A stretch of DNA of 63,902 nucleotides, filler included, from Hausera hauseri (Eukaryota): the NCBI GenBank assembly GCA_046269625.1. It is 11 parts of 11 records of this genome, joined end to end, with 100 filler letters (N's around TTAATTAATTAA, not from the genome) between each part and the next. Parts side by side here need not be neighbours in the genome. Positions count along the whole stretch, not along the records: positions 51,371 to 58,524 come from JBJURY010034780.1; 10 more parts are not named here. The stretch is one strand, 5' to 3'. Under the pieces are notes generated by a model that saw only the letters and a program-made list of their open reading frames with translations, did not search any database and was not told where the DNA came from. A program made the translations under genes and the position numbers. The stretch's first letter is position 1. Every line of letters begins with the position of its first letter. This document shows positions 8,872-63,902 of this stretch, piece by piece.

Positions 8872-13916
<5,045 letters not shown>

Positions 13917-19499: not shown

Positions 19500-19563
19500 A
19501 GAAAAACACAGAGAGGAGGAGAGAAAAAAAGAAATGAATAAAGGACAGAAAGTCAGAAAGACA

Positions 19564-19603
<40 letters not shown>

Positions 19604-30105: not shown

Positions 30106-30114
30106 CTTTAACTT

Positions 30115-30633: not shown

Positions 30634-30661
30634 CAGGAGAACATCACCATGTTGTCTAGGA

Positions 30662-34712: not shown

Positions 34713-34957
34713 CGAAATTTGAAATTTCAAGAAAAATAAAGACATACTGAATTTTGCTTTTATGAAATTTTGATATTGCCACATTGGAATTGCATTTGAA
34801 TATAAATGTTCACAATTTGCCATTTTGACATTATAATAATCTTATCCGTGGATTTAGTTTCCGAACCTATCTCTCGTATTTAAAGCTGGAATTTATTTGT
34901 CAAACTCTCATATGATGGCGGGATAATTCAGCATATATCTTCTACTAAGTCCATCGT

Positions 34958-35618: not shown

Positions 35619-35718
35619 NNNNNNNNNNNNNNNNNNNNNNNNNNNNNNNNNNNNNNNNNNNNTTAATTAATTAANNNNNNNNNNNNNNNNNNNNNNNNNN
35701 NNNNNNNNNNNNNNNNNN

Positions 35719-39948: not shown

Positions 39949-41120
39949 GTAGGTAGAAGTGAGCTCTCCACCGCACTTCTCTGATTGGTCCGCCAACCAG
40001 TTTTCCCCACCTGATTGGCTATTCTGAACATTTCACTAAAATTTTTTCACGACTTCCGCCTCAGAAAATGAGGTCGAGCAAAGAGGTTCGGACCAGGTGA
40101 TACCACTAACGCGTGACGAGGTGAGCAAAAGTTAACAAAAGTGTGGCTTACAGAAATGTAATGGAGAGGTTCTAGAAGAGAAAGAAGCAAAACAGGAAAT
40201 GCTCCACGTGTAACGCAAAACATGTTTCTAGCACTGAGAAAATGTGTACAATGGCTAAATATATTTTGGCGATTTCAATAGACACTGTCGCCAGTCGGTC
40301 AGACCATGGAAACATGGGAAAAATCGACGGGAAACTTTCAAACTGGTAAAATTTTTCCATGTTCAAGTCTGCCGGTGATGGAAATTGGTCTAATACATTG
40401 CTCATAAGTTGGGAGAAATTTCATATTATAGCCGCCTCACGATCAGATCAATAAATCGGGGTGAAAGTGTAATCGAACGAACGAACGAACAAACCAAAGA
40501 AAAGCGTAATGTTAAAGTCAAAATCATCATAGTAGGTAGAAGTGTTCTCTCCTAACCACTTGCCAAAAAGGGCTCAGATCGAGCTAGAAACCAGTTTTCC
40601 CCACCTATCTTGCAATTCTGAGCATTTCATGTTTTGTAGTCAGAGACCCCCCAGCCGGAAGCACATGTCACATGTTGCACATGTCACCGGCGAAAATCGG
40701 CAGAGCTGGATGAGGCGAGAAAAATTTTCTAGCGCGGCAATAGTCGAAAATATTACTGGGCGGCTCTAGAAGCAAAAGAAGCAAAACAGGAAATGTTTTA
40801 TGAGAAACGAGACATGAGTTACGAATTGCGCAATGTTTGGTGCAAATGTCAAACGAAACGCCTGGGAATCGAAGGAGCACGATTTTAACGTTGTCTGACC
40901 ATGGAAACATGGGGAAAAACTGATGGGAAAATTTCAAACTCTAAAAATTTCACATTGTTCAAGTCTGCTGGTTGTGAAAATGGGATGAGCACGTAACCCA
41001 TCAGTAGCTGAGCATTTCCTATTATAGCCGCTTCACGATTAGACCAATGGATTCTGGTAAAAAATGCAATGAAAAACAAAAAAAAACACAATGTTAAGAA
41101 GTCAAATTCATCATCACCGT
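39949..41120 (-). repeat. Two tandem ~585-595 bp units of the Maverick-associated array (third element copy)
   Basis: GTAGGTAGAAGTG at 39949 and 40532; GACCATGGAAACATGG at 40302 and 40897; homologous to 41373-42185 and to the reverse complement of 57834-58524. Confidence 0.9.
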
Positions 41121-41127
41121 TGTTCCT

Positions 41128-41272
41128 ACGTTCGTTCGTTCGTTCGTTCTTTCGTTCTTTCTTCCGTTCGTTCGTTCGTTCGTGCTTTTGTTTGTTCGTT
41201 CGTTCGTTCGTTTTTTCGTTCGTTCGTTCGTTCGTTCGTTCGTTCGTTCGTTCGTTCGTTCGTTCGTTCGTT
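41128..41272. repeat. (CGTT)n / (GAAC)n microsatellite at the head of the array
   Basis: Directly visible; a short (GAAC)n sits at the equivalent position in the other copy (57800-57820). Confidence 0.92.
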
Positions 41273-41372
41273 NNNNNNNNNNNNNNNNNNNNNNNNNNNN
41301 NNNNNNNNNNNNNNNNTTAATTAATTAANNNNNNNNNNNNNNNNNNNNNNNNNNNNNNNNNNNNNNNNNNNN

Positions 41373-42185
41373 AATCAGACCATGGGAACATGGGGAAAAA
41401 TCGATGGGAAAATTTCAAACGGGAAAAATTTCCCCTTACACAAGTCAAACGGCAATGGAAATGGGTTGAGCTCATAGCTCATCAGTAGTTGAGCATTTCA
41501 TATTATAGCCACCTTACGATCAGGCCAAAGGATCCAGGTGAAAATGGCAACCAAACGAACAAAGAAAGAGAAAAGACGCATTGTTATAAGTCAAAGTCAA
41601 AATCATATAGTAGGTAGAAGTGTCCGCTCCACCCCCAATCCCACAAAGTGCTCAGATGGACCTCGGACCTAGTTTTCCCAACCTTTCTCGCAATTCTGAG
41701 CATTTCATGTTTTGTGGTCGGAGATCCCCCAGCCGGAAGCATATGTCATATGTCGCACATATCACCGATGGAAATCGGTAGAGCTCGATGAGTGGAGAAA
41801 AATTTTCTAGCGCGGCGAGAGTTGAAAATTTTACTGGGCGGCTCTAGAAGCAAAAGAAGCAAAACAGGAAATGTTTTATGAGAATCCAGACACGAGTTAC
41901 GAATTGCGCAATGTTTGATGCAAATGTCAAACCGATGTCGTGGAATCGAATGCACATAATTTTGACTCGGTCTGACCATGGGAACATTGGGAAAATTGAT
42001 AGGAAAATTTCAAACTGTAAAAAGTTCCCATTGTTCAAGTCTGCTGGTTGTTGAAATGGGTTGAGCACGCAGCCCATCAGTAGTTGACTATTTCATTTTA
42101 TAGCAACCTCACGATCAGACCAATGGATCGGGGTGAAAAATGCAACTAAAGAACGGAAAAACGCATTGTTATAAAGTCAAAATCT
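41373..42185 (-). repeat. ~1.4 tandem ~590-bp units of the Maverick-associated array
   Basis: GACCATGG at 41378 and 41974; CGCATTGTTAT..AAGTCAAA at ~41577 and ~42162. Confidence 0.88.
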
Positions 42186-42327
42186 CTTTTTGTTTTGTAA
42201 AAAGTCGTGTAGAATGAAGACGACGAGCTCATGATTGAGTATTCACAACTCACAAGGAGAAAGATTGTGATGAAAAGTCACACATATCATAACAAAACAA
42301 CAGCAATAAAATAATACACATATATAT

Positions 42328-42707
42328 TTCACAAATGTGATTGAGATGTAAGCCACAATAAACAGTAATGTACACACAGTATAGCCATTGGATATTGATA
42401 ATGAACTCGATTATATTCAATACGGCATGATGATTGCTGTTAAATTTGAGAAACTAAAATCCAAGCCGATCAAATACTCTGATGACGTTGGTCGGATGGT
42501 GGACGTACACAGCAATCCAATGTTTGCCAGGAAACGATGAACTGTGTGTATTGACAATAAAGCCACCGCCTCCATTTTGTCGTAAATCACGCGGCACACG
42601 GTCCAGTGGAAATTTCACGCCCAAGAGCAGTTTTCCGTAGTGACTGAGCTCGGTAGAGCTAAATGTGAATTAAGTATAATAGTAATAGTAGTAATAAATT
42701 ACTTCAT
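42328..42707 (-). pseudogene. Maverick adenain-like cysteine protease with a 44-nt intron (42659-42702)
   Basis: Spliced: MNSTELSHYGKLLLGVKF..PLDRVPRDL..GFIVNTHSSSFPGKHWIAVYV..VFDRLGF*..HYQYPMAILCVHYC (catalytic H, D, Q and C positions present). Confidence 0.85.
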
Positions 42708-42745
42708 AGTATGACGACGAAGAAGTGAGGCACAGCAGATTTTAT

Positions 42746-43946
42746 TTATACAATGACGTTTCCGTTTTTCGTTATTTCAACCTAGGCATCAAATACACCG
42801 TAAATGTACATCACGGTGGACTGATCCAACACTTTAGCAAAGTGAACCTCTAGTCTCAGGTTTCCCTGCTGAGGTAGTTGAGTCCGTTCAACGTAATAAT
42901 CTGGATCCAGGACAAAGTAGAAGAATGGATAGGTGGACTTGAATAAATCCATCTATATGCCATTATTGACACTTTTGTTTAACAAACCAATTTTGCGCAC
43001 AATAGATTGCATATATGTGCAAACATAATCGCCGGTCTCGAAATCCTACTTGTATGTCTCAACAAAATCCGCATTCCGACCAAAACTGACGTAATTACCA
43101 TTGCTATGCGTAAACGTTCCCGAATCGGTCGTATAACTGCCCACTTGTTGGACAGTCGTTTGAAATGTAACGAGCACAAGTTTCGGCAATCGCATGTCGC
43201 CAAACAGGGCATCTTTTCAAAAAAGTAGTTGAACCTTTGGGTATGGTGTAAAAGACGAGTTTTGTGCGTTGTAATGGGTAACAGGCATTTTGTGTTTCCA
43301 AGCCCAATCGCTGTCCCATGAGCACAGATGGTTCTACCTTTACCCGTCGTACGTATAATCGTGCCTTGGTAATTTTCAGTATGGATTTAAGCTGTGCAAC
43401 TGCGGTTTTCAAACAAAAGACATTTCTGCTTCGTTTGAGCCGACTCATGGCTTTAACACCGGGCAGTAGGTATTTCGGCTGATCGAAAGAGTCAAAGTAC
43501 AGCGGTCCACACATGGTAAGCGGTTTTGATTCGGCCACCCATGTCTGACGGTTTGCCGCTGTGGTATCGTATCCACTGTAGTTCAGAGCCGTTTCAATGA
43601 GTGCTTTGATACTGTATAGACTAGTGTTGCCTTCGATTTTGACGCTGTTCAGAGTCAGTGAAGCCTCTTGGAACAGTGTGAGGAAAAGGTAAATGTTCGG
43701 TGTGACAGTGTCTATTGCAGCGAGAACTGTTTATGCAGCCTTTTTAACCATGACTTTTTCACAGATTAACGTATCGTTCAAATCGAGGTATTCATTATCC
43801 GATTCCATTACATTAAATTGAATGTCAATGTTATCATCCGTTGAAACCGAATCAACGGGGTACATTTCTTTAAATGCCGAATTTTCAATAACAACTTGTG
43901 GCGCGGCTATGTCGAATATACACAATTCAAATTTTGCAGATGCCAT
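42746..43946 (-). pseudogene. Maverick major capsid protein (double jelly-roll, PY/hexon-like)
   Basis: MASAKFELCIFD, EYLDLNDT, KALIETALNYS, DQPKYLLPGV, LYVRRVKV, YPLQRT, QGNLRLEVHFAK; stops and frameshifts. Confidence 0.92.
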
Positions 43947-43965
43947 TTGTTTATCTGTCAATGAA

Positions 43966-44328
43966 TCAATGGAAAATCGTACGACGACGACTTTTGTTTA
44001 TAGCTAATGAACTCGATGATGCTCTACGGCGTTTTCTTATAAAGCCACTGCCAGCGAATTGTTTTTTGACTGATTCAAGGACTCCCGGTACGGCGCTTTT
44101 TATTTCGGATAAGGCATGTTTATTCAGTGATGGTAAAATCGATTTGTTTTCATATAGTACGTCCTGTGTTGTTTTTGCTGCCACGGCACCGATACGCTTC
44201 AACACCGGAAATGATAAACGTGCCAATATACGCAACCATCCAGAGGCGTACTGTTTACCAACAAAATATGGCAGTTCACAGCCCTATTGCGGTTTACTGT
44301 AAATGGATGCGATTTCGGAATCAATCAT
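43966..44328 (-). pseudogene. Maverick core/DNA-binding structural protein (adenovirus core-protein-like), 120 aa
   Basis: LPYFVGKQYASGWLRILARLSFPVLKRIG..DVLY..QFAGSGFIRKRRR..RRRTIFH; lies between penton and MCP; one internal stop. Confidence 0.75.
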
Positions 44329-45246
44329 GTTGTTGTTGGATTCGACGGAAATGAAGAGTTTGACTGGTTGTGGTACAGTACAGAAATTCAATAATGAAGT
44401 CCGCGTCATATCGGATATTCACTTCAACATTTTTTATAGATGTAGATGCCACGGGTAGGTGCATTGGATTATCGAGCTTGACAGTAACATTGTCGCCGGC
44501 AGTATACTTGCTGCTTTCCAGATAAATTGCACAGTATCATGGCGAAAGCTTTTTCCAGTGTAATTTTGACAATATCTTTAGCCAGATCAAATTTAATCAA
44601 CCCATTTGCATCTGACTCGAAAACTTTACATATCTCCTTAAATATTTAATCTGAAGAAGAAAAGTTTTGGCAGAGATATTCTACAGATTCGCAATAGCCA
44701 TTGTCTCCAATCGATACGTATGACGTTGACACCATTTTAGTTGTATAGGTAAATTTTACTGTTGTCTGTTAATGTACGGGACTTAATCTAGGAGCAGCTA
44801 CATATTCACTTTTAAGTTGTTGACCTTTGTATTCTGTATTTTTGAGTCCAAATTTCTGTGCCATATCAGATAACTCAAAGGTAACAGCAAAATTAAAATC
44901 TGCCATAAATGTAAGTTTTGGTCTAAAATAAAAACACCGATTTTGCCGTGTGAACCGTAATCTGCTTCGGTCGTGCAAATACCCGATTTTCCGACTGTTA
45001 TTTTATTGACAGTAATTGTTTGAGGACAAGAATGTGTTTTGGTTTCAGTAACAGTCTTGTACGTTATTTTCATCCTACTTTCAATGTCACCGGTGCGTAG
45101 GGAATGTTAAATTCCGTCATTGCAACCTCCCATTTTTCAGCAGATAAATCCAAAGGATTGTTCCGAACTATAACGTATTTACTGGCTGATTTGTTCGGAC
45201 GAGTCGTCGGATAACTGTTGCTCGGCAACACCATGTAAATACTCAT
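44321..45246 (-). pseudogene. Maverick minor capsid protein (penton/PX) paralog 2
   Basis: MSIYMVLPSNS..NPLDLSAEKWEVAMTEF N-terminus; DNPM.LPV..LFISVE/HFRR-type C-terminus; internal deletion relative to 54576-55609. Confidence 0.85.
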
Positions 45247-45288: not shown

Positions 45289-45881
45289 TTATCGACGTCG
45301 AAAATGCAACATCAAATGTGTCGTTGATCTAAACAGAAATTTAATGGGTTCTCAAAATTCATTAAGCATATACATGGAAATACTGTGCACAATATTGTGA
45401 AACAATGATAAGTACATGGGTCTAAGCATATTAATGCGAACAGTTTCACCCGTTGTTTTGTACGTGTCAGAATCCAGTTCGATGGAAGCTAGCAGTTGTT
45501 TACGTTCTATACCAATGAGTATGGATTCTGTTAAGTCCATTAAAATGTTTAATCCACGAAATGCTCCATAGAGTTGTGGTTTGTATTTAGCAACAATAGG
45601 TCGTCCAACAATGTTTTGATAGAATTCGCGTTGTGAGAAACCCATATTCCGAGCCAATAATTCATCAAAGGAAATATACGTAACATTGCCATGTAGTATA
45701 ATCAAAATATGACCATCAGCGTTTATTTCCCATGTCTTTACGGCTAATGTAGCCGTTTTCTTGACATATTCACACAATTCCGGTTCCGTTTCCATTAATA
45801 CATCGTGCGGTATAATATAATAGCGGAAGACTGATTTTGACTTAGTCCACTTTACTATAATATCGGATTCCGCATTGGATG
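45289..45881 (-). pseudogene. Maverick minor capsid protein (penton/PX) paralog 1, 5'-truncated by the contig end
   Basis: LARNMGF, NILMDLTESILIG..KQLLASI, LRPMYLSL, PIKF..THLMLHFRRR*. Confidence 0.85.
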
Positions 45882-46329
45882 NNNNNNNNNNNNNNNNNNN
45901 NNNNNNNNNNNNNNNNNNNNNNNNNTTAATTAATTAANNNNNNNNNNNNNNNNNNNNNNNNNNNNNNNNNNNNNNNNNNNNACCCGACTTTTCTTTAAAA
46001 AAACCTTTTTTTAAATGTTGGTATCTAGTCAGAAACCTGACGTGTCTATGATCCGTGCACCACAACATGCCTCCGGCATTACTTTCCAACCCCTTTCCTT
46101 TTTTGTTTTCAAAAATAACACACATTTCTAGCATACTCACTCGTAACACGGACATTGCTTACACCCTCTATACATCTCTATCCTCTTTCCTACACACTTC
46201 CGACTTTTATTTGTCGCACCATAGTTCTGTGCTACATCTGTCTGACTCACTTTCTTCTCCGATCATTCATCTCAACCTTTACTTTCACCTCCGAGGTGAT
46301 TCAGACCCTGATCCTTCTACTAAAAGTTC

Positions 46330-49300
46330 CTCCAAAACAAGATTCGGTCGTCGTCTTGCTGACTGTGCACAACCTGTCTCTCCCAATCTTCCTTGCAGAG
46401 AGTTCTTCCTCGATAAAACTAATTCAAGCCGCACTTGGCTACAATTTCATTTACAATGACTAAAAGCCAATCATATTACCGATTCTTTTTTGCGAGACAA
46501 CAGCTTGTTACTTCTTTTTCCAGCTAACATCAAGTATCAAATCAATAATCTTACTGATATCCTTACTTCGCCAATACTATACGACATGCTTTATGAGTCT
46601 GTCCTTCATATTACCGATTCACCGATTGATAATATAATACAGAAGTACTTTAAGAAACACGCTATAGGCAACAAAAAACCTTCTGACTTTCTGCAGACCT
46701 CTATTTCACATCTAAGTGCTCTTGGCGTTACCCCCACCAACAATGCGGATTTATTCGTCGTTATTTCCTTTCCTCGTTACCCATTTCCATCAGAGCTCTC
46801 CTTACTGTCGTAGACGACTCGACGGCGATTGAAAAACTTGCCCTATTGGCTGATAAAAGTTTCGAAATCTTGTGAACCAACAACTCACAACCCGTAGCTG
46901 CAGCAACCACGCATACCTCATCTCACGTAGACACGATTGTTTTCGCACAGCAACTACAATTAATGCAGAAACAATACGATACTCTACAGCATTCAATCTC
47001 CGTCATCACGGCTCAACTAAGTAATCTGTCTACGTCTCGGTGAGGCCAAATTTACTCATCGCGTTAGTGTAGCCTCTCCAGGCACTCATTTCGTTCCATA
47101 TCTCCTGGCGGACGAATGATTTGTTTTTATCACAAGAAATTTCGTAGAAATGCAGAAAAATGACTTTGGGGTTGTAGATATTATGACGAGCGATTCGCGG
47201 TGGACAGCCCTATCTGTATTTACCACACAAAATTCCACTCTAGACAGATCGTATGTTCCGGGATGTAAACATTACAAAAACAACTTCAGTTTTTCTTCAT
47301 CTTCTTCTCCTCCTCCTTCTGCCTACCAGTCATCTTCTTTCCCTACACAATCTTCAAAAAACTAAAAAGGCCGCCAGATGTAACGGCACATTCTGGCATA
47401 GGCAATACTGCTTAGTCTTCTGGCCGCCTTAACACCGCCTCCGCAGTTTTTCTGTTAAAAGCTACAGTGTTCTCTAGCAGTGCTCCACATATCGATTTTC
47501 TCATCGACTCAGGAGCTGCCTTTTCACTCCTCCCTTTGTCCTTCGTCTCTACATCAACGAAAGTTTTTTCACCTCCGCTTTTCATCGCCAGCAATCAAAC
47601 TTTGCGAATCGCAGATACAACGGAACTGGTTTTTACATTCTCAAACTTACCAGGCAAGTTTGTCTGGAAATTCCACGTGGCTAACATTAAATCGCCAATA
47701 ATCGGCTCAGACTTTTTGGCTGCACACGACCTGCTAGTTGACTGCAAGTATGGTTGTTTGCTACGTAGAGACTCCGTCGTGAACGTTAACAACTGTCTAA
47801 CAGACAGCGCAACAGAACAATCGATTGCAAACTCACACTTGAATTTGGCAAATTGCTCATCTGTTGTTAACGACACATCTAGTAGTTTATCTATTTCCTC
47901 AATTACACCCCAAACACCGAAGTCGATTTTAAAACAATCGGTTAAACCGAATGTTGACAACGGCAAAGTCGTTCGTTCTTCGCCAATCACAGTCACCGCT
48001 TCCTCTGATAATACGCCTCAATCATTTTTTTCACTAGATTCCAATCTCAAATTCCACATCAATTCCTCTTGTCCTTGCATACTAAAAAAAGACCCTAGCT
48101 TTAAACCCCTGTCAGCAACTTATAACCACATCGTCACCCAACACCAAAGACTTATCAGACAAAAGGTGAGATTATCATCGCCCCGTAGACGAAAAGCCGT
48201 GGAATTAGAGTTTAATGAACTCGAAAAATCTGGTATCATTCGGAGATCCAAATCACCATGGGCTTCACCATTACATATAGTGGCAAAAAAGGACGGTACT
48301 TTTCGACCATGTGGAGACTACCGTCTAGTAAACAATTTAACCATCATGAATGCTTACCATTACCGCTCGTAAAAGACATCCTGCACAGTCTTAACAACAC
48401 CAATACCTATTCCACAATAGATCTGCACAAAGCTTGCCATCAAATCCCCGTTGCACCCGATGACGTTCCAAATAGTGCTGTCATCACTCCATTTGTCCTT
48501 TACGAATACATGTTTATGCCATTCGGTTTACGTAACGCAGCCCAAACTTTCCAACGCCACATCGACACTGTTCTCTCAGGCCTTGATTTTGCTCATCCTT
48601 ACATCGATGACATATTAGTTGCCTCCAAATCTGTGAAACAACACCATGAACACCTCCAAATTATTTTTCACAGACTACATCATAGTAACTTACAAGTTAA
48701 TTTCTCCAAGTGTAATTTTTTTCAGAAACGTGTCAATTTCTTAGGCCACATTTTCACTCCTTACGGCCACTTTCCACAACCTGATCGACTACAGCAACTA
48801 AAAAACGTAACACTACCAACGACCACTACAGATATGAGAAATTTTCTTGGAACACTAAATTTTGTCCATAAATACATACCGCATTGCTCTGAGCTTACGG
48901 CACCTTTCGCACACATCTCATCTGGAAAGAAAAGACAGTTAATCCAATGGACTCCCGATTTAGTCACCAAATTCGACCACTTACGCGAAGGCCTTAAAAC
49001 CGTCAAAATATTGGCCTACCCAAAATCCGACGCGGAGATGATACTTACCATCGATGCCTCTTCCACAGCTACTGGTTCAATACTACACCAAGTTTCCAAC
49101 GACGTCGACGAACCTTTCGAATTTTACTCTCGAAAACTTACATAACCAGAAAGCCAATATTCTACATTTGATCGTGAGCTACTAGCCATAATTCTGGCAG
49201 TAAAACATTTCAAGCATCTCCTCCTCTCTCGCCCATTTGCCATCTAAAGAGATCGCAAGCCTCTGCTACACATCATGTCACTAAAACAGCAATCACTAAG

Positions 49301-51199
49301 GCAGAAACGACAGATATCGTACCTATCTACATTTTGTTTTGTCATAAAGCATATTTCAGGCACGGAGAATTTGGTCGCGAATTTCCTGTCACGGTCGATC
49401 GGCTCAATTACGGTTAAACTAATATTTTCTACCGAAATTCTAAAGTTCAACCAACCGTCTGCCGATATTCTTAGCACTTTCAAATCCTTCGAAATCATTG
49501 ATGGCATTGCATACGACACATCTAACCCCGGTAATAAAAAAATCATTCTCGCCCCTTCTTTGCAGAAACCAGCTTTTCTTCACACGTATTCACTTCATCA
49601 CCCAGGCTCGAAAGCCACGTTTTGCTTGCTCCAACGTCATATAGTTTGGCCATCAATGCGCACAGATGTACAGGGTTGGGTTAAGGAATGCGTCGCCTGT
49701 CAAAAATACAAAGTCAACAAACATCTTAAACCGCCGCCTTACCATTTCCCATGTACATTACGTTTTCATACCGTCCATCTTGATCTCGTCGGACCTTTAC
49801 TTTCCGATAACGGGTATCAACATATTCTCACTATGATGGATCGTGATTCTTGTTGGCCTGAAGCCGTTCCCCTCCGCTCAACAAACACCGATTCAGTAGC
49901 AGACGCCTTCATCAAAATTTTGATTAGTGGTTTTGGATCCCCACGGCATATCATAAGGAACCCAGGTCCACAGTTCGAATCGGAACTTTTCAAATCGCTT
50001 GTTAAACGCTTGGGAATATCGCATTTTTATACAACACCGTACCATCCACAAGCAAATGGCCTCCTTGAAAGATTCCATCGAACTATAAAAATTTCTTTAA
50101 AAATCCTAGCAGACAATCATCGTAATTGGATGTCCATCCTGCCATTTGTTCTACTCGGTTAGCGCGATACCCCTTCCACCATCACGGGTTGTGCTCCAGC
50201 CGAGGCACTTTTTGGGACTCCAATGCGGGCTCTGTTCGAACTTTCCGACCTTGACGACAATCCGACAGACAAAAACATTCGCGCAGCACAGTCGTACTTT
50301 GTTGAGGTCAACTTAGACTCATTCTGCCGCTTATTTAACAATAAAATATCGTACATACCGAAGGATTTATACTCAGCCAAGTTTGTATGGCTGAAGGATC
50401 AATCACCTTCAGGCTTTGGACCTCAATATGTTGGTCCATACAAACTACTTCACCTCTCATCTCATACAGCTACCATCTTACGCCAAGAAAAACCCTACAA
50501 TGTTTACTTTTCAAACCTTAAGCCCGCTTTCTTCGTTGATGACAATCCGGATGCCGATTCTACCTCCAACCCCAATTTAACTCTCGCTCCTTCCACTCCT
50601 TTCTCAGACTTTCTTCACGATTTCGCTCTGTTACAACAACCACTCTTCTCTCACACTAAATCATCCTCAACTTCCTCACCGCTTACTGAATCTACATCGC
50701 TTACTCCGTTTTTTCCGCTCGTATCTTTTCCCTCTCTTTCACCATCCCCACCACCTTCAGTTTCTTCGCCTCTCTTGTCTGATTTATTCCCTCCACCATC
50801 TTCAACGTTTTCACCTCAAGCAACACAACACAGTGAATCAGAAAACCCTACAAAACGTCCACCACAAAATATCGTCCAACAATTGAGCACAAACCAACCA
50901 AATAGGACACGCAGAGTGGCATTCAGTACCTATATCAGGGAAAAATCCGTAGACAAAACACAACGCCTCATACACACCAAAACGCAATATAAACCAACCA
51001 ATTTTAGAGTTTCGCCTCCTTCTGTTTCACCCTACAGTTTCTTTTCTGCCACAGGGGGGAGGTGATGTAGTGCCACGGTCTAAGACATGGCTCTCCATTT
51101 CTAGCAATAGAGTCACCGTTTGGTCTATATTTTGTTTAACAGACGAACAGCGCACAGTAGTGTCAAATAAAATCAATATTAGTATTTGGCTACTCACCA
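46330..51199 (+). mobile_element. Gypsy LTR retrotransposon relic, copy D (gag, -1 frameshift site, protease, RT, RNase H, integrase, tail, PPT, 3' LTR at 51066-51199)
   Basis: FLIDSGAAFSLLP, WASPLHIVAKKDGTFRPCGDYR, YIDD, TIDASSTATG, HHPG..CVACQ, PYHPQANGLLERFH; PPT AGGGGGGAGGTGA; LTR TG..CA with AATAAA. Confidence 0.95.
47356..47365 (+). promoter_or_regulatory. -1 ribosomal frameshift slippery site A_AAA_AAC plus gag stop
   Basis: The -1 frame from 47356 is the frame of the protease ORF at 47467; the same heptamer plus TGA occurs in copy C (18138-18147, minus strand). Confidence 0.75.
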
Positions 51200-51372
51200 G
51201 ACTACCAATTATTCTGTTATTTAAAATTTTACCGCCTAGTACGTAATCATCACTAAAAAACCTAGAGTTTNNNNNNNNNNNNNNNNNNNNNNNNNNNNNN
51301 NNNNNNNNNNNNNNTTAATTAATTAANNNNNNNNNNNNNNNNNNNNNNNNNNNNNNNNNNNNNNNNNNNNTA

Positions 51373-51832
51373 ATGGTAACTGATGAGTTTGATGAGAACT
51401 GGTCAGATAGATTACGCAACCGTGACGTTATTGCCATCGACAATTTATTTTATCTAGCAGCGAAACAATCGGACTTCAACAACCTATTCACGAAGAGTGA
51501 ATGGCACCGTAATGTGAGTGTTATTTTTATTACGCAAAAACATGTTCCATCAGGGCGGACAGCATTGAACAAGAAATCTAAACGTACACTATTTGGTGTT
51601 GTTCGAAAATTCCCGTGATCAGATTATCATTGATTATGTTGCACAACATTCATTTCCTCACAACCGAGCCTACTTAATAGATGCATATTATGATGCTACG
51701 ATGGAGCCACACGGATACTTGTTCATCGACTTTACGCAACAGTATCCCGATGACATGCGTGTACGAACAGACATTTTCAATCAGAAAGGTGGTGTATGTG
51801 TCTATAAGCAAATTCAAAAATCGGCGACATGA
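51373..51832 (+). pseudogene. Maverick packaging ATPase (A32/FtsK-like), C-terminal part, frameshifted
   Basis: VIAIDNL (Walker B), NLFTKSEWHRNVSVIFITQ, LVLFENSRD, AYYDATMEPHGYLFIDF..MRVRTDIF. Confidence 0.9.
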
Positions 51833-52059: not shown

Positions 52060-52380
52060 ATGCGATACAAACGTAGTCAGCTGTACTTTATTGCTTTGCT
52101 CAAGACACCTACTAGATATAAGCGAAACATGTTACGATCATTCCCGCAATTTGTAGTAGACGATTTGTTGAAAATTTTGTACAATATCGTTGTGGGTCAC
52201 GTTGTCATTGGACGTGGAAAGCGCAATATACTAAAGTATCGAAAACGACTCATTGATTTAGCCAACGCCCGTAGAAAACGACTGAAACAAGAGGTCATGT
52301 ACCAGCAAGACGGCGTATTCCTTGGTGCAATTCTACCCATTGTCACGTCATTACTGGGTGAACTCATTGGTTCTGCATAA
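52060..52380 (+). CDS. Maverick small structural protein with a C-terminal amphipathic helix (pVI/cupiennin-like), 106 aa
   Basis: ..LLKILYNIVVGHV..YRKRLIDLA..QQDGVFLGAILPIVTSLLGELIG resembles the QxGGFL..LP family found in Polintons. Confidence 0.7.
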   Translation: MRYKRSQLYFIALLKTPTRYKRNMLRSFPQFVVDDLLKILYNIVVGHVVIGRGKRNILKYRKRLIDLANARRKRLKQEVMYQQDGVFLGAILPIVTSLLGELIGSA

Positions 52381-52518: not shown

Positions 52519-53490
52519 ATGGGCGATGTGTGGTTCGATCGGCATCATTTCGTCGGTTATACTGGCGTCGACAAACTGACAAAGACTGTCTAACAAAGTC
52601 GGCAACATAGCCAACGTTGGTTCGAGAAACAGCTAACATACAGCCTACACAAACCGATAAGAAGCCGGTTTCCAACTCGTGCATACCATGCTGACGATGT
52701 AAATAACATTTGACAAATAGATGTGATGGAAATTATTCCGTATGACAGCATCAACGATTGGTATCAGTACGTGCTGACATGAGTTGATGTGTTTAGTCGT
52801 TTTGCACGTGCAATTGCCGTAAAATCTAAATCCGGTAAAGAGATGGCCGATGCTGTCCAGACGCTGATACAACAACAACAACCGAATCATTTACAAACGG
52901 ATTTGGGTAAGGAATTCTACAACGCCCACGTTGCGGTGTAAACCACTACTCGCAGTTTTCCCAATATAAGGCGGCACTCATTGAACAATTTAATCGAACA
53001 TTGCGTGGTCGCCTAAACAAATTCTTTAAGAAGCAAAGCAACAAACGTAGGGCAAATGTACTGCCGTGGCATCAATGGATTACGGCCGATGGATGTAATC
53101 GATGAATTGGACATGTGACTTTATCAAAACCGACGACGACGACCAACTAAACGTCGTCCCAAGTATAAAATCGGTGATTATGTACGTATTTTAAAAATAA
53201 GCACGACGCCATTCATTAAGAACTTTAATCAAAACTGGGGCGACGAAGATTTCCACATTTCTGCAATCAACACTAAACATATACCTGTCATGTACGTTTT
53301 AGAGGATGAAAATGGTGAGGAAATATGCGGTAAATTTTCCGAACAGGAATTGCAGGTACTGCCCGAGAAACATGATGTATACCGTATACAGAAAATTATA
53401 CGTTCAGGTGGCAAAGGTTGGAATAAACAATATCTCGTCAAGTGGCACGGATACATTACAAAGAGCTGAGTATTTTCATCGCAGATTTAA
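52519..53490 (+). pseudogene. Maverick retroviral-like integrase with C-terminal chromodomain
   Basis: YTGVDKL, TYSLHKPIRSRFPTR, QIDVME, VDVFSRFA, LQTDLGKEFYN, EQFNRTLR, KYKIGDYVRI, NWGDEDF, YRIQKII..YLVKWHGY; stops and deletions. Confidence 0.93.
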
Positions 53491-54536
53491 TGATGATAAT
53501 TTATTTGGTACTTGATAGTAACAGATCATTATCACAACATGACTACGACAATGACGTCAATACCTCTAAACAGTTTACCATGCACTTGGACCAACCGATC
53601 GATTTACGCTACAGAGACTGGGAAATGGCTTTGACGGAATTCACTTTTACATTTTCACCAATGATAATACGTCAGAACAGTGGTAATTACTTTACCCGAA
53701 AAGAAACGTACCCTAATTTAAGTCGTTTTCGGACAATCCGACACAATAACCGATATACTCTTCGCAACGATTTGCGAAAACATTTCACAGTTCATGCTTA
53801 TTTTTCAAACTACCGTATGAATCTAATGCATCGAAATCCCATGGAAATGCAGTTTATTTCTATAGATGATGCTTAGGCATGGGGGTTTTAATCAGTCAAT
53901 GTACACTCAAAACATCTACGGCTAGGTGGAAATGTTATAATTAGTGAAAAATTGGACCTTTCATCTGATGTGGAATCTAAGTCGGAATCAGTCTTCCGCT
54001 CATATATTATACTACACAATTTATTAATGGAAACGGAACGGGATTTGTAAGAGTACATCAAAAAAACGGCTACATTAGCCGTAAAGACATGTGAAATAAA
54101 CGCAGATAGTTATATTTCGATTATACTACATGACAATGTTACATATTTTGTCTTTGATGCATTATTGGCTCGAAATCTGGGTTTTTCACAACGTAAAGTC
54201 TATGAAAACATTGTTGGACGATCTATTGTCGCCAAATACAAACCACAACTCTATGGAGCATTTCACCAAATCAATATTTTAACGGACTTAACCGAATTCG
54301 AACTCGTTGGTGGAGAACGTAAACAACTGCTGGCTTCTATCGAACTGGATTCTAACACGTACAAAACATCGGGTGAAACTTTCCGCGTTAATATGCTCAG
54401 ACTCCTGTACTTATCATTGTCTCACAATATTGTGCACAATATTTCCGTGTATATGTTTGATGAATTTTGGGAACCCATTAAATTTCTGTTTGGGTCAACG
54501 ACACATTTGACGTTGCATTTTTGACATCGTCTATAA
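53490..54536 (+). pseudogene. Maverick minor capsid protein (penton/PX) paralog 1
   Basis: MIIYLVLDSN..FTMHLDQPIDL..WEMALTEF; INILTDLTEFELVGG..QLLASI..YLSL..PIKF..TLHF*HR. Confidence 0.87.
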
Positions 54537-54575
54537 TAATCAAACTTAATAATCATCATTGACATAATTGTGAAC

Positions 54576-55609
54576 ATGAGTATTTACATGGTGCTGCCGA
54601 GCAACAGTTGTCCGACGACTCGTCCTAACAATTCAGCCAGTGAATACGTTGTAGACTGGAACAATCCTTTGTATTTATCTGCTGGAAAATGTGAGATTGC
54701 ACTGACGGAATTTAACTTTCCCTACGCACCGGTGACATTGAAGGGTACTATGAAAATAATGTACAATAAGACTGTTACTGAAATCAAAACACATTCTTGT
54801 TATCTGACACTTACTAACAATAAAATAACAGTTGGAGAATCGGTCACTTTCACGACCGAAGCAAATTACGGTTTATACGGCAAGATCGGTGTTTTTATTT
54901 TAGATCAAAACTTACATTTTATGGAAGATTTAGAATTCAAAAATACAGAGTACAAAAGTAAGCATATTAAAAGTGAATATGTAGTTAGTCCTAGATTAGA
55001 TCCCGTATATTACCAGACAACGGTGAAATTTACCTATACAACAGAAAGAATATCAACGTCATACGTATCAATTGGCGACAATGTCTATTGTAAATTTGTA
55101 GCACAGCTCAGTCAACATTTTTCTTCAAATCAAAAGTACAAGGCGATATTTAAAGCTTTCGAGTCAGATAAAAATGGCTACATTAAATTTGAACTGGCTA
55201 AGGATATTGTTGACATTTCGTTGGACGAAGCTTTGGCCATGGTACTGGGTTTTGAAAAACAGCAGTTTGATTGAAGATGGTGGCGGCACATGTTGCAACA
55301 CTCAAACCCAAACTGAAAAGTGGACTAATTCAAACATGCATTTACGTGAACGTCACCGAACCGATTTTCGTCGGTGGAGTACGTGTACGGCTAGTCCGTG
55401 CAATTTATCTGGAAAGCAGCAAGTATACTGCCAGCGACAATGTCACCGTCAAGCTCGATAATCCAATGTACCTAACTGTCGCATCTACATCTATAAACAT
55501 TGTTAAAGTGAATATCCGATGTGACGCGGGCTACCTTATTCAATTTCCGTACGGTACCACAACCAGTCTAACTCTTCATTTCCGTCGAACCCAACAACAA
55601 CATAATTGA
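54576..55609 (+). pseudogene. Maverick minor capsid protein (penton/PX) paralog 2 (frameshift near 55271)
   Basis: MSIYMVLPSNS..NNSASEY..NPLYL..EIALTEFNFP; LAMVLGF; IYVNVTEPIFVGG..LVRAI..NPMYLTV..IQFPYGTTTSLTLHFRR. Confidence 0.9.
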
Positions 55610-55964
55610 TTCCAAAATCGTTTCCATTTACAGTAAACCGCAGCAAGGCAATGAACTGCCGTATTTCATTGGTAAACCGTATGGCTCTGGTTGGTTGCGT
55701 ACATTGACACATTTAGCATTTCCTGTGTTGAAGCGTATCGGAGCCGTAGCGGAAAAAACAGCATAGGACGTACTTTATGGAAACAAATCGATTTTACTAT
55801 AACAGAAGGAACACGACTTGTCAGAAATAAAAAGCGCTGCACCGGAAGTTGTATAATCCGTTAAAAAACCATTCGCTGGCAGTGGCTTGATGAGAAAACG
55901 CCATAGAGCATCGTCGAGCTCATCAGCTATAAACGTACGTCGTCGTCGTACGATTTTCGATTGA
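55602..55964 (+). pseudogene. Maverick core/DNA-binding structural protein (start codon mutated ATG>ATA)
   Basis: Same length and sequence pattern as 43966-44328; YGSGWLR, FAGSGLMRKR, RRRRTIFD. Confidence 0.75.
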
Positions 55965-55983
55965 TTGATTGCCAAATAGATAA

Positions 55984-57195
55984 ATGGCATTTGCAAAATC
56001 TGAATTATGTATATTTGACAAAGACACACCACACGTTTTTATTGACAATGTAGCATTTAAAGAAATCAACCCCGTTGATTTGATTTCAACGGACGATAAT
56101 ATTGACATTCAATTTAACATTATGACATCGGACAATGAATAACTGCAATTGAACAATACGCTACTCTACTCGTCAACGGTTCTCACTGCAACGGACACTG
56201 TTACACCGGCCAATTACTTTTTCCTCACACTGTTCCGACAGGCTTCACTGACTCTAAACAGTGTCAAAATCGAAGGCAACACCAATCTGTCCAGAATCAA
56301 AGCACTCATTGAAACGGCTCTAAATTACAGCACTGACACGAAAACGACTCATTTGACGAAAACCATCGGATACGACACCACAGCGGCAAACCGTCAGGTA
56401 TGCGTGGCAGAATCAAAAGCACTTACAATGTGTGGACCTCTGTACTTTGACTTTTTCGATCAGCCCAAATACCTACTGCCTGGTGTTAAAGCCATGATTC
56501 GGATCAAATAAAGCGACAATGTCTTTTGTTTGAAAACCGCCGTTGCAAATCTCAAACCCATACTGAAAATTACCGAGACACAAATATACGTACGTCAAGT
56601 AAAGGTAGAACCATCTGTGCTTATGGGACATCGATTGGGCTTGGAAACGCAAAATGCCTGTTACCCGCTACAATGCACAGAACTTGTCTTTTACATCATA
56701 CCGAAAGGTTCGACAACGTTTTACAAGGAATCTCTGTTTGGCGACATGCGATTGCCAAAATTTGTGCTCGTTACATTTCAAACGACTGTTTAACAAACGG
56801 CAAGTTATACCACCGATTCGGAGACGTTTACCCATAGTAATGTGAATTAAATTAGTTTGGGCCGGAATGCGAATTTCGTTGAGACGTACAAACAAGACTT
56901 TGAATATAATGATTATGTTTGCACATATATGCAATCTATTGTGCGCAACATGGGTTTTCTGAACAAAAATGTTAATAATGGAATATCGATGGATTTGTTC
57001 AAGTCCACTCATTCATTCTTCACCTTTGCCCTGGCTCCCGATTATAACATTGAACAGACTCAGCTTCCTCAGCAAGGAAACCTGAGACAGAAGGTTCACT
57101 TTGCTAAAGCGTTGGAGCAGTCTACAGTGATGTGCATTTACCGTATATTTGATGCCGATGTTCAAATAACGAAAACCAAAACCGTCAGTGTATAA
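55984..57195 (+). pseudogene. Maverick major capsid protein, 403 codons in one frame with four in-frame stops
   Basis: MAFAKSELCIFD, TLFRQASLTLNS, KALIETALNYS, FFDQPKYLLPGV, YVRQVKV, RLPKFVLV, FTFALAPD, QGNLR..HFAKAL. Confidence 0.94.
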
Positions 57196-57239: not shown

Positions 57240-57638
57240 ATGAAGTAATTTATTACTATTACTATTACACTTAATTCACATTTAGCTCCATCGATCTCAG
57301 TCATTAGGAAAAACGGCTTTGGGGCGCGAAATTTTGTGGCATGTTTCTTTTGGACTGTGCTACGTGATTTACGACAAACTGGCGGCGATGGCTTTATTGT
57401 CAATACACACGCTTCATCGTTGCCGAGCAAACATTGGATTGCTGTGTTCGTCTACCATCCGACCAACGTCGTCACAGCATTCGATCCGATCGGATTTTAT
57501 TATCCGCCATCGTTAGTTTCTCAAATTGAACCACAATCATAATGTATTGAATATAATGGTTTTCATTATCAACATCCAATGGCTATACTGTATGGACATT
57601 ACTGCTTATTGTCGCTTACATTACAATCACTTTTGTGA
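57240..57638 (+). pseudogene. Maverick adenain-like cysteine protease with a 41-nt intron (57245-57285)
   Basis: ATG-AA|gtaatt..tttag|C gives MNSIDLSH; KFCGMF; FIVNTHASSLPSKHWIAVFV..AFDPIG..HYQHPMAILYGHYC (catalytic Cys changed to Tyr in this copy). Confidence 0.87.
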
Positions 57639-57833: not shown

Positions 57834-58524
57834 GATGATGATTTTTACTTTTTAACAATGCGTTTTTTTGTTCGTTGCATTTTTCACCCGATCCATTGGT
57901 CTTATCGTGAGGCGGCTATAATAAGAAATGCTCAGTTACTGATGGGCTACGTACTCAACCCATTTCCACAGCCATCAGACTTTAACAGTGAGAAATTTAT
58001 ATAGTTTGAAAATTTCCCATCAAATTTTCTCCATGTTTCCATGGTCAGATAACGTAGAAATTGTGCGCATTCGATTCAAGGACATCGGTTTGACATTTGC
58101 ACCGAACATTGCATAACTCGTAACTCGTGTCTTGTTTCTCATAAAACATTTGCTGTTTTGCTTCTTTTGTTTCTGGCTCCTCCCAGTAAAATTTTGGACT
58201 CTCACCTCGCTATAAAATTTTTCTCTACTCATCAAGCACTAAGGATTTCCATCGGTGACATGTGCGACACATGATATGTGATTCCGGCTGGGGGGGGGCT
58301 TCCGAATTCGAGACATGAAATGCTGAGAACTGCGAGATAGGTGAGGAAAACTTGATCGGAGGTCGATCTAAGCACTTTTTGGGAAGTGAGGACAAAATGA
58401 CACTTCTAACTACTACATGATGATTTTGACTTTTTAACAATGCGTTTGTTTGCTCGTTCGTCCCATTGCATTTTTCACCCCGATCCATTGGTCTAATCGT
58501 GAGGTGGCTATAAAATAAAATCTT
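57834..58524 (+). repeat. Tandem ~582-bp units downstream of the Maverick protease (1 complete plus the start of a 2nd)
   Basis: GATGATTTT.ACTTTTTAACAATGCGTTT...CCGATCCATTGGTCT.ATCGTGAGG.GGCTATAA recurs, with its ATG at 57858 and 58440. Confidence 0.9.
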
Positions 58525-58847
58525 NNNNNNNNNNNNNNNNNNNNNNNNNNNNNNNNNNNNNNNNNNNNTTAATTAATTAANNNNNNNNNNNNNNNNNNNN
58601 NNNNNNNNNNNNNNNNNNNNNNNNAAAAATTTTTTACGCGCCAAATTCAAATTTTTACACGTACCTAAAATCCATACAGTACGCGTGCTTGTGTGTATCC
58701 AATTTCTGACTGTGTGTCTCCCATCTCCGCCCTATTAATCGTGCGTGCGTGTGTCGTTTTTTCTACCCCATGAATCATCCGCGAACCAAACATTTCCTTC
58801 CTTCTCGGGGGGGGGGTCTGATCTGGTGCGCTCCTATGTACCTACTA

Positions 58848-58993
58848 TTTTGAACTTCCCACAATGTCGATGATAGGATTCTGTCGCCAGATTCTATTAA
58901 ATCATACGTTGTCCATAGATCTTCGTCATTTTCTGGTATCAGTGTGACTTTTCCATTTTTATTCTTATCGATATATTTATTAACGCGCTTCAT
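58848..58993 (-). pseudogene. PELO: Pelota/Dom34 N-terminal fragment (first exon or decayed copy)
   Basis: MKRVNKYIDKNKNGKVTLIPENDEDLWTTYDLIESGDRILSSTLWEVQ aligns by eye to the pelota N-terminus (MKLV.K.I.K...G.VTL.PE..EDMW..YNL...GD....ST.RKVQ). Confidence 0.75.
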
Positions 58994-59219
58994 AGCTTCT
59001 GTTTCACAAATCTTACAAAAGAAATCTCTCTTCAAATATTAAGCAGTTTAACTTGTGTTGAAAAAAATGACGTTCAACAATTGAAATTTAAAACATAAAC
59101 ATTTTCTATTTTTTTAACGACCAAAAATTAGATTGAGTAAATTTTCAGAGGAAACACAATCAAAAACATACTCATAACTTCTTGCAAGATAATTGAAGGC
59201 TATAAAATAAAAGTCAAAA

Positions 59220-62200
59220 AATTGAAGTAGAAATTGGAATTGTATTAGGCGAAAGAGTAGAAATAGAAAATGAAACAGAGGTAGCGGTAAAGATAGGAAG
59301 AGAGATAGGAATAGAAGCAGAAGATGTTGAAAATGATGAAGCAGAATTAAGGGCAGAAGGAGGAGGTGGAACAGGTGTAGCAGCAGATATAGGAACAGCA
59401 GGAAGTGCAGGAGTGAGAAAAGATGTTGATATACCGATTGGTGAAGTGTCGTCGACGAAGAAGGAGAACTTTAAGTTGGTAATTTGCAGTGTAGGTTCTT
59501 TGCCGTCTTTAGAGATAATAGCGTTCTACAAATGCAGTTGTACCAGTTTATAGGGCCCTAGATACCGCGGCTGGAAACCACACGGCGATTGATTTTTTAG
59601 CCATACAAATTTTGCCGAATACAAGTCTTCAGGTAAATATGTTTCGTCTTTATGAAGTAACCTGCAAAACGAATCTTTAATGACCGTAACGAAGTGATTT
59701 TTTGCCGCCCGTATCGTTTCATCTGTAGGAGTGTTGTTTTGGGTAATTAGTTCGAATAATGATCGTACAAGAGCTCCGAATAAGGCTTCAGTAGGTGCGC
59801 ATCTCGTAGAAGTAGACGGAATGTTCCGCCAGCCAAGCAGAACAAACGGAATAAGATTTGTCCAACTAGTGTTGTACTCTGCAAGAATTCTTAGTGACGT
59901 TTTCAATGTTCGGTGGAAACGTTCTAAAAGTCCATTCGATTGGGGGTCATAAGGCGCTGTATGTATGTGATGGATCCCCAGTCGGTTAACAAGGGATCTG
60001 AACAGGTTGGATTCAAACTGTGGACCCTGGTCTGTGATGATGAAGCGAGGTGATCAAACCTGCTAATCCATGTACGAATAAAAACATCAGCTATAGTGTC
60101 GATATTTGTGCTCCGCAGAGGGATGGCTTCTTGCCATCGCGAGGAACGGTACATCGTTGTGAGAATGAATTGATGACCGCTGTCTGGAGGAAGAGGGCCG
60201 ACAATGTCAATATGCATGGATTCGAAATACAATGTGCAGGGAAAGTGGAACAGTGGTGGCTTTAAATGCTTAGTTGTTTTGTATTTTTGGCAAGTTACAC
60301 ACTCCTTAACCCGTGTCTGCACATCAAAACGCATTGACGGTGGAGCAGACGAAAAGTGGCTTTAGCACCGGGATGATGTAGCTAATGTACACTGTTAAAC
60401 GCATGCCTTTGCAAAGGTGGTGCAAGAATTATTGCGGAATGACCTGGTTTGGAAGTGTCTAAAGCCATGCCGTCAACAATTATGCATCACTTAAAAGAAT
60501 GAAGCATGTCCTGAGGTGGCTGGTTCTGTTGAAATTGTACTTGTGTAAAGATTGGTGAAAAATTAATCGAACCAACCGACCTATATAAAAAGTCGACAAG
60601 CAAATTATTAACTCCGTTAATATATTTTATGTCGAAGGAAATGTCGATAAGTATGACATCTGTCGTTCTTGGTGTGTGGAAGGATGTTTCATAGCCATGA
60701 TGTTAAGTAATGGTTTGTGATCGGTTTGTATAGTAAAATAACAAGCGACAAGTTGATGGGAGAAATGGTTTAAAGCTAGAATGGTGGCCAATGATTCTCG
60801 ATCTAACGCTGAATATCTAGTTTCAGGGGATGTTAGCTTACGAGAGAAAAATTCTAGCAGTTGATTTTTTCCTTTGTTGATTTGCTGGAGTACAGCTCCT
60901 ACTGAAGTCGTTGAAGCGTCTGAAGTAAGGATGAGTTCCGCATAAGGCTTGGGGAAAGCGAGAATGTCGACGGTCTTAATTCCTTCGCGTAGCTTATCAT
61001 ACTTATCTACCAATTCAGGTGTCCACTGGATTGACTGATGTTTTTTGCCACCGCTTAAGTTTGTAAATGTTGCTGTCAGTTCGGAACAATGCGGTACATA
61101 TTTATGTAAAAAGTGTAGCGTACCAAGGTAGCTTCGCATTTCAGTGGTCGTACGTGGTAACTGGATATTCTTAAGAGCTTCAACTCGGTCTGGTTGAGGA
61201 GAGTGACCGTCTGGTGAAATAACGTGGCCCAAAAAGTTGGTGCGTTTTTTGAAGAAATGGCATTTGTCAAAATTAAATAGGAGATTATGGTGGTTAAAGC
61301 GTTGGAATGTTTCGCGATGGTGTTCCTCATGTTGTTTGACCGAAGAGGAAACGATTGGAATATCATCAATGTAAGAGGCGCAAAAGGAAAATCTGAGAGA
61401 ATTGAGTCAATATGTCGCTGAAACGTCTGTGCGGCATTTCGCAAACCGAACGGCATAAACAGGTACTTGTAGAGGCCAAAAGGAGTACTGACAACGGTTT
61501 TTTCTATGTCTTCAAGTGCTACCGGTATTTGGTGGTATGCTTTGGCCAAATCTATGGTCGAATAAATGGTAGTTGAATTAAGACGATGCAGGATGTCCTT
61601 GATGAGTGGCTAGGGGTACGTATCCATGATTGTCAAGTTGTTCGACAGGAGGTAGTCACCTCATGGTCTAAAAGTACCGTCCTTTTTTGTACAACGTGTA
61701 AAGGTGACGACCAAGGAGATTTGGAACGGCGTACAATGCGGGAGTGTTTTAGTTCGCAAAATTCGGCTTTTGCGGCCTGTCTACGACGAGGTGACAATGG
61801 TCGCACCTTTTGACGTATTGGTCGTTGATGTTGTGTAATTATGTGATGTGTAGTGCTGTTTGTAGAGGTAAACGAACGATCTTTTTTAAGTACGCGTGGA
61901 CATCATGTGGTAACAAATTGCTGTAAAGTTGTAGGCAACTGTGAGAGATTCGGTGATGATGGTGAAGCAGCTGAGTAGTAGCGAATGCAATTTGTGAATT
62001 GTTTTGTGATGTGAATTCGAGTGGTATTTGGTGTAAGATAGTCAAATTGAAAATGGTGTTGGATAAAATGATTTCGTCAAGTGAATGAACACTGATGGCA
62101 GTACCACAATTATCGACATCGAATCTCGATCGAATATTAATATTATTATTCAAAAATTTACGAATTGAATTACTGTCATGGAAATTCGAATTATTTATTG

Positions 62201-63902
62201 ATTTTCCCAAAAATGACCTCCCTGTCCCGATCGACTGCACGGTAGTCGAAATGCTAATTACATGCTGAGCAATGCTGCCAGTGATGCCGCTCCTCAGACA
62301 TCGTTGACTGCAGTCAACCAATAAATTATAATGTAATAGAAAATCGGAACCTAGAATTGCTGTCTGGACGCTAGAAATTGTGAACGTCCAGTGGAAAGGT
62401 AAATAGAATTTTGGTAAGATGAAAGGTAATTTAGCAGTGCTAAAAATGTGCAGCGGTTGACCTGAAGTGGTGTATAACGGTTTAATTCTGAATGGTAAAT
62501 TTTGTACAGGGAAAGATTGTGGTAATAAGGAAACCACTGCACCTGTATCAATGAAGAAATCAGCTAATTGCATTTTAGGAGCGGTGACTGCAGCCTTTAG
62601 AGTAAAGACAGCAAAAAAGGAGTGTCGGCATTTAGAAAAGGTAATAGTGCTTTTGCCAGAGTTTGCCGTGACTTTCGGTGGCAAATTTAGCTTTCTGAAA
62701 AGGTAAACTAGGACGACTATTATAAGAAAAGGTAGTACGTCCGTCGTTTGTATCTGGTTTGAAGGTGCAGTCTGGAGTGCATTTATAGGCTTGATTTTTA
62801 AACTTTGCGTTATAAATGCAAACAACGGTGTCTGAAAAAAAACTTTTATTGTAAAATGTGTAAACTAGGCAGCATTTATTGGCAGTCGTATTGAATCTGC
62901 TGTGATAGTAGCAGATTAACGACCGCGCAAGCGATAGTGATCTGTTTCTAGATGCAGGAGTGGCGCGGTCAGTAGCAAAATCCCTTCACCTGGACAGGGA
63001 AAGCTCGTTTAATTTGTTGTTTATATTGTTAATCGTTGCGTGTAGTGCAATATTTTCAGCACGTGGCTGATTGAGTTGTTGTTCTATTTATATGTTATTG
63101 GTTTAAATATCGTTGGAAGCAACTGCCGACGAAACGACTGGTGCGGAATGTAAATGTAGAACATCGTGTGTTTTATTGGCTAATTCGGCCAATTTTTCAA
63201 GAACCGTGGAGTCCTTCACCACGTAAGTAGGGCTCGGATTTGGATGGGTAACGCGTTAAGAAAGTAATGACGCAGTAGTTCGGGGTTGTGTTCTTTAGTG
63301 ACGCTGAGACTGCGCAGATGTGCCAAAGACGCGCGTAAAAATTTTGATGGTCGTTGTGTGCCTATAGCATTGTCGTGGAAGAAGCGTTGTATGATGGCGT
63401 CCATTGAGAGCTGTTAGTATGGGTCAGGAAGTTCAAAGATTTCAAAGATGTTGTGAATTCGTATATTATTTTTCTGTTAGGGAGTAAGAAGAGGAGATTG
63501 TGTGCCTTGGTCAAAGGGTCGGTGATATTGCTTGATGTAGCCAGAGTTGATGGAATTGCAACCAAGTTTTGCTGGAGCCTTGGTTGTCAATGAAGAATTC
63601 GGTACAGTTAGGGAAAGGGGCGCAAGAGGTAGTAGATGAAGTATTATTGGTAGAAGCAAAAGTGGGTTTTTGAAGTAGTATGATAGATTTTGGTTTTGTG
63701 GTGGTTTTATCCGTGGTGTCTATGGTGGGCGATGAATTCATGCCACCACGGATGCGGCAGTGTATGTGGAGGTGGATATAAGTTGACGAAGGTCGCACAG
63801 TCCCAACGAGAGGTACCGTGGAGCCGTGGTGTGTGAGGTAAAAGTCAGGTGAGCGAATAAAAGTGGAGATAATGTTGTAGATAATAGCAGTGTTTAGTTG
63901 TG
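59220..63902 (-). mobile_element. Gypsy LTR retrotransposon relic, copy E (gag, protease, RT, RNase H, integrase, truncated tail)
   Basis: FFIDTGAVVSLLP, KAYHQIPV..TPFGLY..MPFGLRNAAQTFQR, TSDASTTSVG, CVTCQ, HIDIVGPLP; no PPT or LTR at the 3' side. Confidence 0.93.

Follow-up and report, generated by a model that had tools for sequence, protein, structure and literature searches.

Twin pentons in known viruses and at the Hausera locus

The penton (minor capsid protein, PX) of Polintons/Mavericks was described as a single jelly-roll protein encoded one gene upstream of the major capsid protein, in a module that also holds an ATPase, an integrase and a protease (Krupovic et al., 2014, PMC4028283). 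Most adintoviruses have one penton and a few carry duplicates (Adinto23690 and Adinto18043), and the DE-loop inserts are variable (Buck et al., 2024, 10.1101/2024.03.25.586562). The protein files belonging to that work (PMC11071296) contain eight 'Penton2' labels, namely in Adinto10012, Adinto11189, Adinto18043, Adinto23690 (twice), the reference genome BK011010, one adenovirus-like genome and one adomavirus. By these labels a Penton2 is found in 4 of the 67 new adintoviruses (67 being the row count of the naming table) and is not named in the other 63; the four come from Botryllus (10012 and 11189), sediment (18043) and Porites (23690). The original statement that Polintons typically encode one minor capsid protein holds, and twin pentons are uncommon in this family, though on record. 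In the giant algal virus PBCV-1, a chlorovirus, two penton paralogs keep the jelly roll at low identity (about 10%) and carry different DE insertions; both form homopentamers, which occupy 11 vertices in the case of P1 and the unique vertex in that of P1v1 (Shao et al., 2022, PMC9617893). Several genomes of Trimcap B PLVs, which are protist viruses, have two mCP copies, and the same report states that no Polinton virion has been observed so far (10.64898/2026.06.19.733378). A search of the open-licence literature found no functional test of twin Polinton pentons.

The locus analysed here belongs to a window of 63,902 nucleotides from Hausera hauseri, in which ten identical 100-nt linkers (8723–8822, 14497–14596, 18638–18737, 23643–23742, 31013–31112, 35619–35718, 41273–41372, 45882–45981, 51271–51370 and 58525–58624) separate 11 segments of 4–9 kb each. 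Because the linkers are artificial, gene adjacency across them is meaningless. Copy A of the Polinton (segment 51371–58524, plus strand) contains, in order, the end of an ATPase gene, small ORFs, an integrase gene, the penton genes PX1 and PX2, a small basic ORF, the major capsid gene, a protease remnant and a terminal repeat. Copy B (segment 41373–45881, minus strand) is about 80% identical to copy A, and its small ORF, major capsid, protease and terminal unit occupy 41609–44320 (minus strand). Both segments stop short of the left part of the element and the left end is absent; nearly all genes of copy A are disrupted. We read copy A as the virion module of an endogenous Polinton (adintovirus) now in decay; it carries two penton paralogs.

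The retroviral-type integrase pseudogene (52522–53469, plus strand) has the match expected of a Polinton/adintovirus integrase (Pfam rve, E = 7e-8), and its tail is presumably chromodomain-like. Apart from integrase and pentons, the ORFs of copy A were named by position and by-eye likeness to published adintovirus proteins. On the plus strand these are the C-terminal part of a frameshifted packaging ATPase (51373–51829), which is cut by the segment start, resembles PacK and has a weak P-loop-type Pfam match (E = 0.019); a small basic ORF (52060–52380) like 'GasderminX' of the virion modules of Beta-type adintoviruses, with no Pfam match; a small basic ORF with stops (55602–55950) like the core protein 'Cupiennin'; a major capsid protein (hexon) pseudogene (55984–57195); and the remnant of a cysteine protease with adenain-like motifs (57300–57620). 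Capsid, ATPase and protease genes are tentatively placed in one module on these grounds, with no Pfam match for hexon or protease. Polintons have AG termini, and a unit of about 590 nt, probably the right terminal repeat (57835–58414, strand not assigned), ends on the minus strand in an AGTAG-type motif, for which four matches were found and none is expected by chance. These end motifs lie at 39948, 40531 and 41609 (plus strand) and 58414 (minus strand). The unit is repeated head-to-tail in more than one copy at 39948–41272, 41373–42190 and 57835–58524, which includes a third segment with terminal units and without capsid genes.

Copy A has two adjacent pentons between integrase and cupiennin/hexon, and its gene order is that of BK011010 (Integrase-Penton1-Penton2-Cupiennin-Hexon-Adenain in the file of PMC11071296). 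In the same files, Adinto10012 and Adinto11189 read PacK-GasderminX-Exod-Integrase-Penton1-Penton2, and Adinto18043 reads Penton1-Penton2-Cupiennin-Hexon with the same motifs, its pair being closely similar in the core by eye. The likeness is one of gene order: the twins of Buck et al. (2024) are from assembled genomes with open penton ORFs as listed, whereas copy A is a pseudogenised insertion. The module of Krupovic et al. (2014) also places the penton as here, with one penton there and two at this locus. The twin penton is real and not new, an uncommon known state of adintoviruses.

Integrity and fold of the two penton genes

PX1, the derived penton pseudogene (53490–54536, plus strand), runs in one frame with four internal stops. 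PX2, the canonical penton pseudogene (54576–55609, plus strand), has a core at most 53% identical to relatives; a frameshift near 55272 splits the gene in two, leaving one piece of 232 codons and one of 110. The two are 39 nt apart and lie between the integrase and major capsid genes. A six-frame scan with core and insert profiles built from relatives only gave, for PX1 and PX2 respectively, 33.7 and 70.0 bits for the N-core and 59.3 and 96.4 bits for the C-core (iE 8e-12 or lower), and it found no third penton in copy A. Two genes of about 345 codons with PX N- and C-termini had been predicted; the tandem pair and both cores in each member stand, but neither is an open reading frame, and both are dead genes today.

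The same relatives-only profiles found two C-core matches in each copy of the element and N-core matches in both penton genes of copy A and in PX2 of copy B. The presence of both paralogs in both copies is borne out in part. PX1 of copy B (45292–45876, minus strand) comprises only the C-terminal ~195 codons, being truncated by the segment end, and PX2 of copy B (44324–45246, minus strand) lacks about 150 nt through a deletion and is frameshifted at several places.

Two other explanations of these features were considered and set aside. PX1 and PX2 are not an assembly repeat, because the longest DNA match common to both is at most 18 nt, and the junction recurs in copy B. The PX2 break might have been a programmed -1 frameshift, given a slippery-type heptamer at 55247, yet decay is the better reading because the -1 frame runs straight into a stop and the heptamer lies over a coding motif that is conserved.

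An intact relative of PX1 was found in 1 of 615 candidates (P0004, 345 aa, 52% identical to PX1), and with P0004 as a query 618 cluster representatives were obtained at E ≤ 0.001. The AlphaFold2 model of P0004, made with an alignment of 127 of the best 150 of these 618 relatives, reached pLDDT 94.4 and pTM 0.82; a three-row alignment gave pLDDT 29.9 only. Every top structural match of the model is a penton: PBCV-1 capsid chains score Z = 15.1 and 14.3, mavirus and Sputnik 12.6 each, and fowl adenovirus 12.5. Foldseek agrees (mavirus penton, E = 2e-6). The insert residues 49–249 alone match, with a middling score (Z = 5.8), an adenovirus-derived ADDobody, presumably the penton crown. Atlas pointed to the Sputnik V18/19 family (0.94, resting on 44% of that cluster's members). 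The top viral structural matches in BFVD are two unannotated proteins, M4QZG2 and M4QR75, of the protist virus Tetraselmis viridis virus S1, hinting at twin pentons in this cultured Polinton-like virus as well.

By this model the PX1 type is a single jelly roll with a DE-loop/crown insert. PX2 aligns to the family profile with an hhalign probability of 99.8 over 218 columns, and with N-core, insert and C-core profiles all matching it is, by homology, of the same fold. Since the P0004 fold matches pentons and PX2 aligns to the family profile, neither gene lacks the single jelly roll, and the penton identity originally proposed for both is upheld. No Pfam penton family matched P0004, PX1 or the pieces of PX2. 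The 127-row profile found nothing in a PDB sequence search, and neither did P0004 in a tblastn search of phages. In word-based searches no intact relative of PX2 came up among 129 and 207 candidates, which is weak evidence.

Divergence of the paralogs and of the two copies

In an alignment with 130 of the best 150 of 618 relatives (230–480 aa; 20 were dropped by length), PX1 and PX2 are identical at 18/53 positions of the N-core (34%), 11/104 of the insert (11%), 11/47 of the stalk and 32/99 of the C-core (32%). The central regions do differ as strongly as had been supposed, but an insert identity of 11% is ordinary, because the inserts of PX1, PX2 and P0004 alike have a median identity of 13% to those of relatives. 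Both inserts match one insert profile (56.7 bits for PX1 and 61.0 bits for PX2), so that, as far as profiles tell, they are one domain type and not alternatives; the suggestion of alternative types of insertion domain is not borne out by this result. Identity between PX1 and P0004 is much higher (58–67% in core and stalk, 43% in the insert), so the PX1 lineage was under constraint.

The cores of the paralogs have changed unequally. PX2 has a median core identity of 0.40 to relatives, against 0.33 for P0004 and 0.30 for PX1. Among 44 family-conserved columns, defined from P0004 matches clustered at 50%, PX2 matches 35, P0004 30 and PX1 27 (most relatives match 37–43, the lowest 22), with neutral decay lowering the scores of the two genomic copies; at 12 family-conserved columns PX1 and P0004 both deviate. 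Judged from these columns, PX2 is canonical and keeps the conserved core residues, and PX1 has a derived core in which many are replaced. An IQ-TREE phylogeny of 50 rows and 199 core and stalk columns (the four genomic copies, P0004 and the 45 best-scoring relatives) gave the PX1 clade a stem length of 0.73 and PX2 one of 0.42, with support of 100/100 for each. Sisterhood of PX1 and PX2 is not rejected by the AU test (p-AU = 0.535), FastTree places them separately with weak support, and the nearest non-PX1 row to PX1 by path is PX2 (1.70 vs. 1.78). The phylogeny fits both duplication in place and capture of a second penton. An old and uneven divergence of PX1 and PX2 is supported by these comparisons, its age resting on protein distances and on the intact PX1-type relative.

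Two proteins among the best 150 of 618 relatives (P0086 and P0128, 540 aa each) contain two complete pentons fused in one ORF, with C-core scores of 68 bits in the upstream and 94 bits in the downstream half of P0086 and of 69 and 81 bits in P0128. Judging from copy A, P0086, P0128 and, by eye, BK011010, the derived copy tends to be the upstream one. Doubling is also seen within the insert: P0005 (451 aa) has two insert matches, and P0028 (442 aa) and P0146 (645 aa) have doubled or much enlarged crown inserts by eye.

Comparison of copy A with copy B bears on the age of the pair. In the penton block dN is 0.139 and dS 0.177 (ratio 0.79, CI 0.57–1.10, 455 codons), so the comparison of A with B reveals no purifying selection on the pentons; the protease gives dN 0.149 and dS 0.136 (88 codons), and over 141 nt of non-coding DNA the raw distance is 0.11. 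No stops in the penton blocks are common to both copies. The penton blocks seem to have been almost identical at first and to have decayed once inserted, and they share nearly one progenitor because the ratio is near-neutral and the divergence close to that of non-coding DNA. For the same near-neutral difference copy B is no independent proof of age. The duplication had been called ancient and retained since it occurs in both copies; the old divergence is sustained by protein distance and the intact PX1-type relative, but the two-copy argument is not, and sequence comparison traces the tandem arrangement only to the common progenitor of blocks A and B.

The hexon and the small ORF (55602–57195) show a dS of 0.31–0.33, about twice that of the penton block (53970–55590) and the protease (0.14–0.18). 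For the hexon, dN is 0.119 and dS 0.330 (ratio 0.36, 378 codons), and for the small core-protein ORF dN is 0.134 and dS 0.311 (dN/dS 0.43); the order of hexon and penton dS (0.33 vs. 0.18) was reversed in 0 of 1000 bootstraps. We infer that the extra synonymous divergence of the hexon block probably stems from recombination between two Polinton lineages.

Candidate roles of a second penton and remaining segments

With a probability of roughly 40%, we favour a division of roles between two separate kinds of homopentamer. Each paralog would have built its own homopentamer while the virus was active, PX2 at ordinary vertices and PX1 at a specialised one or at a subset, where it might have met different partners (in packaging, uncoating or attachment) as in the P1/P1v1 pair. 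This reading is preferred because of the core asymmetry and the PBCV-1 precedent: the 12 conserved columns at which PX1 and P0004 both deviate and the longer PX1 stem speak for it, as does the conservation of PX1-specific sequence with intact P0004. The precedent is a distant one, as PBCV-1 is a giant virus in which P1v1 carries a second insertion domain and a bridging helix, unlike PX1 and PX2, which are of equal length and carry the same insert type; vertex use was shown in PBCV-1 (Shao et al., 2022, PMC9617893) and is only inferred for PX1 and PX2. Further, a second penton is not required for packaging, because most adintoviruses manage with one (63 of 67 without a Penton2 label), and the confidence interval of the A/B penton ratio spans 1.

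Equal length and architecture, together with inserts that form the outward crown and are so dissimilar, would also suit interchangeable homopentamers, in which either paralog could occupy any vertex and two crowns would broaden the range of cells or receptors used or distribute immune pressure. Among the best 150 of 618 relatives, inserts do vary widely in length and number (125–645 aa, with the double insert of P0005). We nevertheless consider this doubtful, as the insert divergence equals the family background and the distinctive PX1 changes reach beyond the crown into the conserved core. Heteropentameric vertices mixing both paralogs, as the original prediction had offered, are unlikely. 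The short gap between the tandem genes suggests co-expression, the fused proteins P0086 and P0128 would put two pentons in one assembly, and a heterotrimer was modelled for the triple major capsids of Trimcap PLVs (10.64898/2026.06.19.733378). Against these stand a core identity of 32–34% with PX1-specific changes at conserved positions, the homopentamers of PBCV-1 (PMC9617893), the sole solved two-penton case, and the chance that the fused ORFs are read-through or gene-calling artefacts. Transient redundancy, in which the second penton came from recombination between Polinton lineages (or duplication) and had no distinct role, is quite improbable: the mosaic look of A and B, the lack of a supported PX1–PX2 clade, the scatter of twins among single-penton genomes (PMC11071296) and the mosaicism described for these viruses (10.64898/2026.10.13.758929) agree with it, but sisterhood is not rejected, PX2 is the nearest non-PX1 row by path, and two different Botryllus adintoviruses both retain a divergent pair.

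Extended from this locus, separate homopentamers would imply that some animal Polintons have an asymmetric capsid with a dedicated unique vertex made from a fast-diverging second penton, a generalisation we regard as rather unlikely. If the unique-vertex reading is true, a giant-virus trait recurs in small animal DNA viruses. A canonical and a derived penton in one genome offer a natural handle on whether a special vertex exists. What the present locus contributes is a pair of strongly divergent pentons and signs of block mosaicism. Better material for a test than this decayed copy are the deposited genomes that already contain the arrangement as an intact pair (BK066506, BK066579, BK066815, BK066910 and BK011010).

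The remaining segments of the window are of other kinds. Decayed retrotransposon pieces occupy 1–8722, 14597–18637, 45982–51270 and 58625–63902, which we take to be Ty3/Gypsy-like by their reverse transcriptase and integrase motifs, and 35719–37600 is, by motifs, presumably a BEL/Pao-like retrotransposon remnant. Host-type genes lie in 8823–14496 and 31113–35618, presumably a Mi-2/CHD3-like remodeller with short introns and a PIKK (SMG1-like) kinase fragment by their motifs. The two segments within 18738–31012 hold microsatellites and a C2H2 zinc-finger gene of a different style, one of them has higher GC, and they possibly come from another animal than the Polinton segments.
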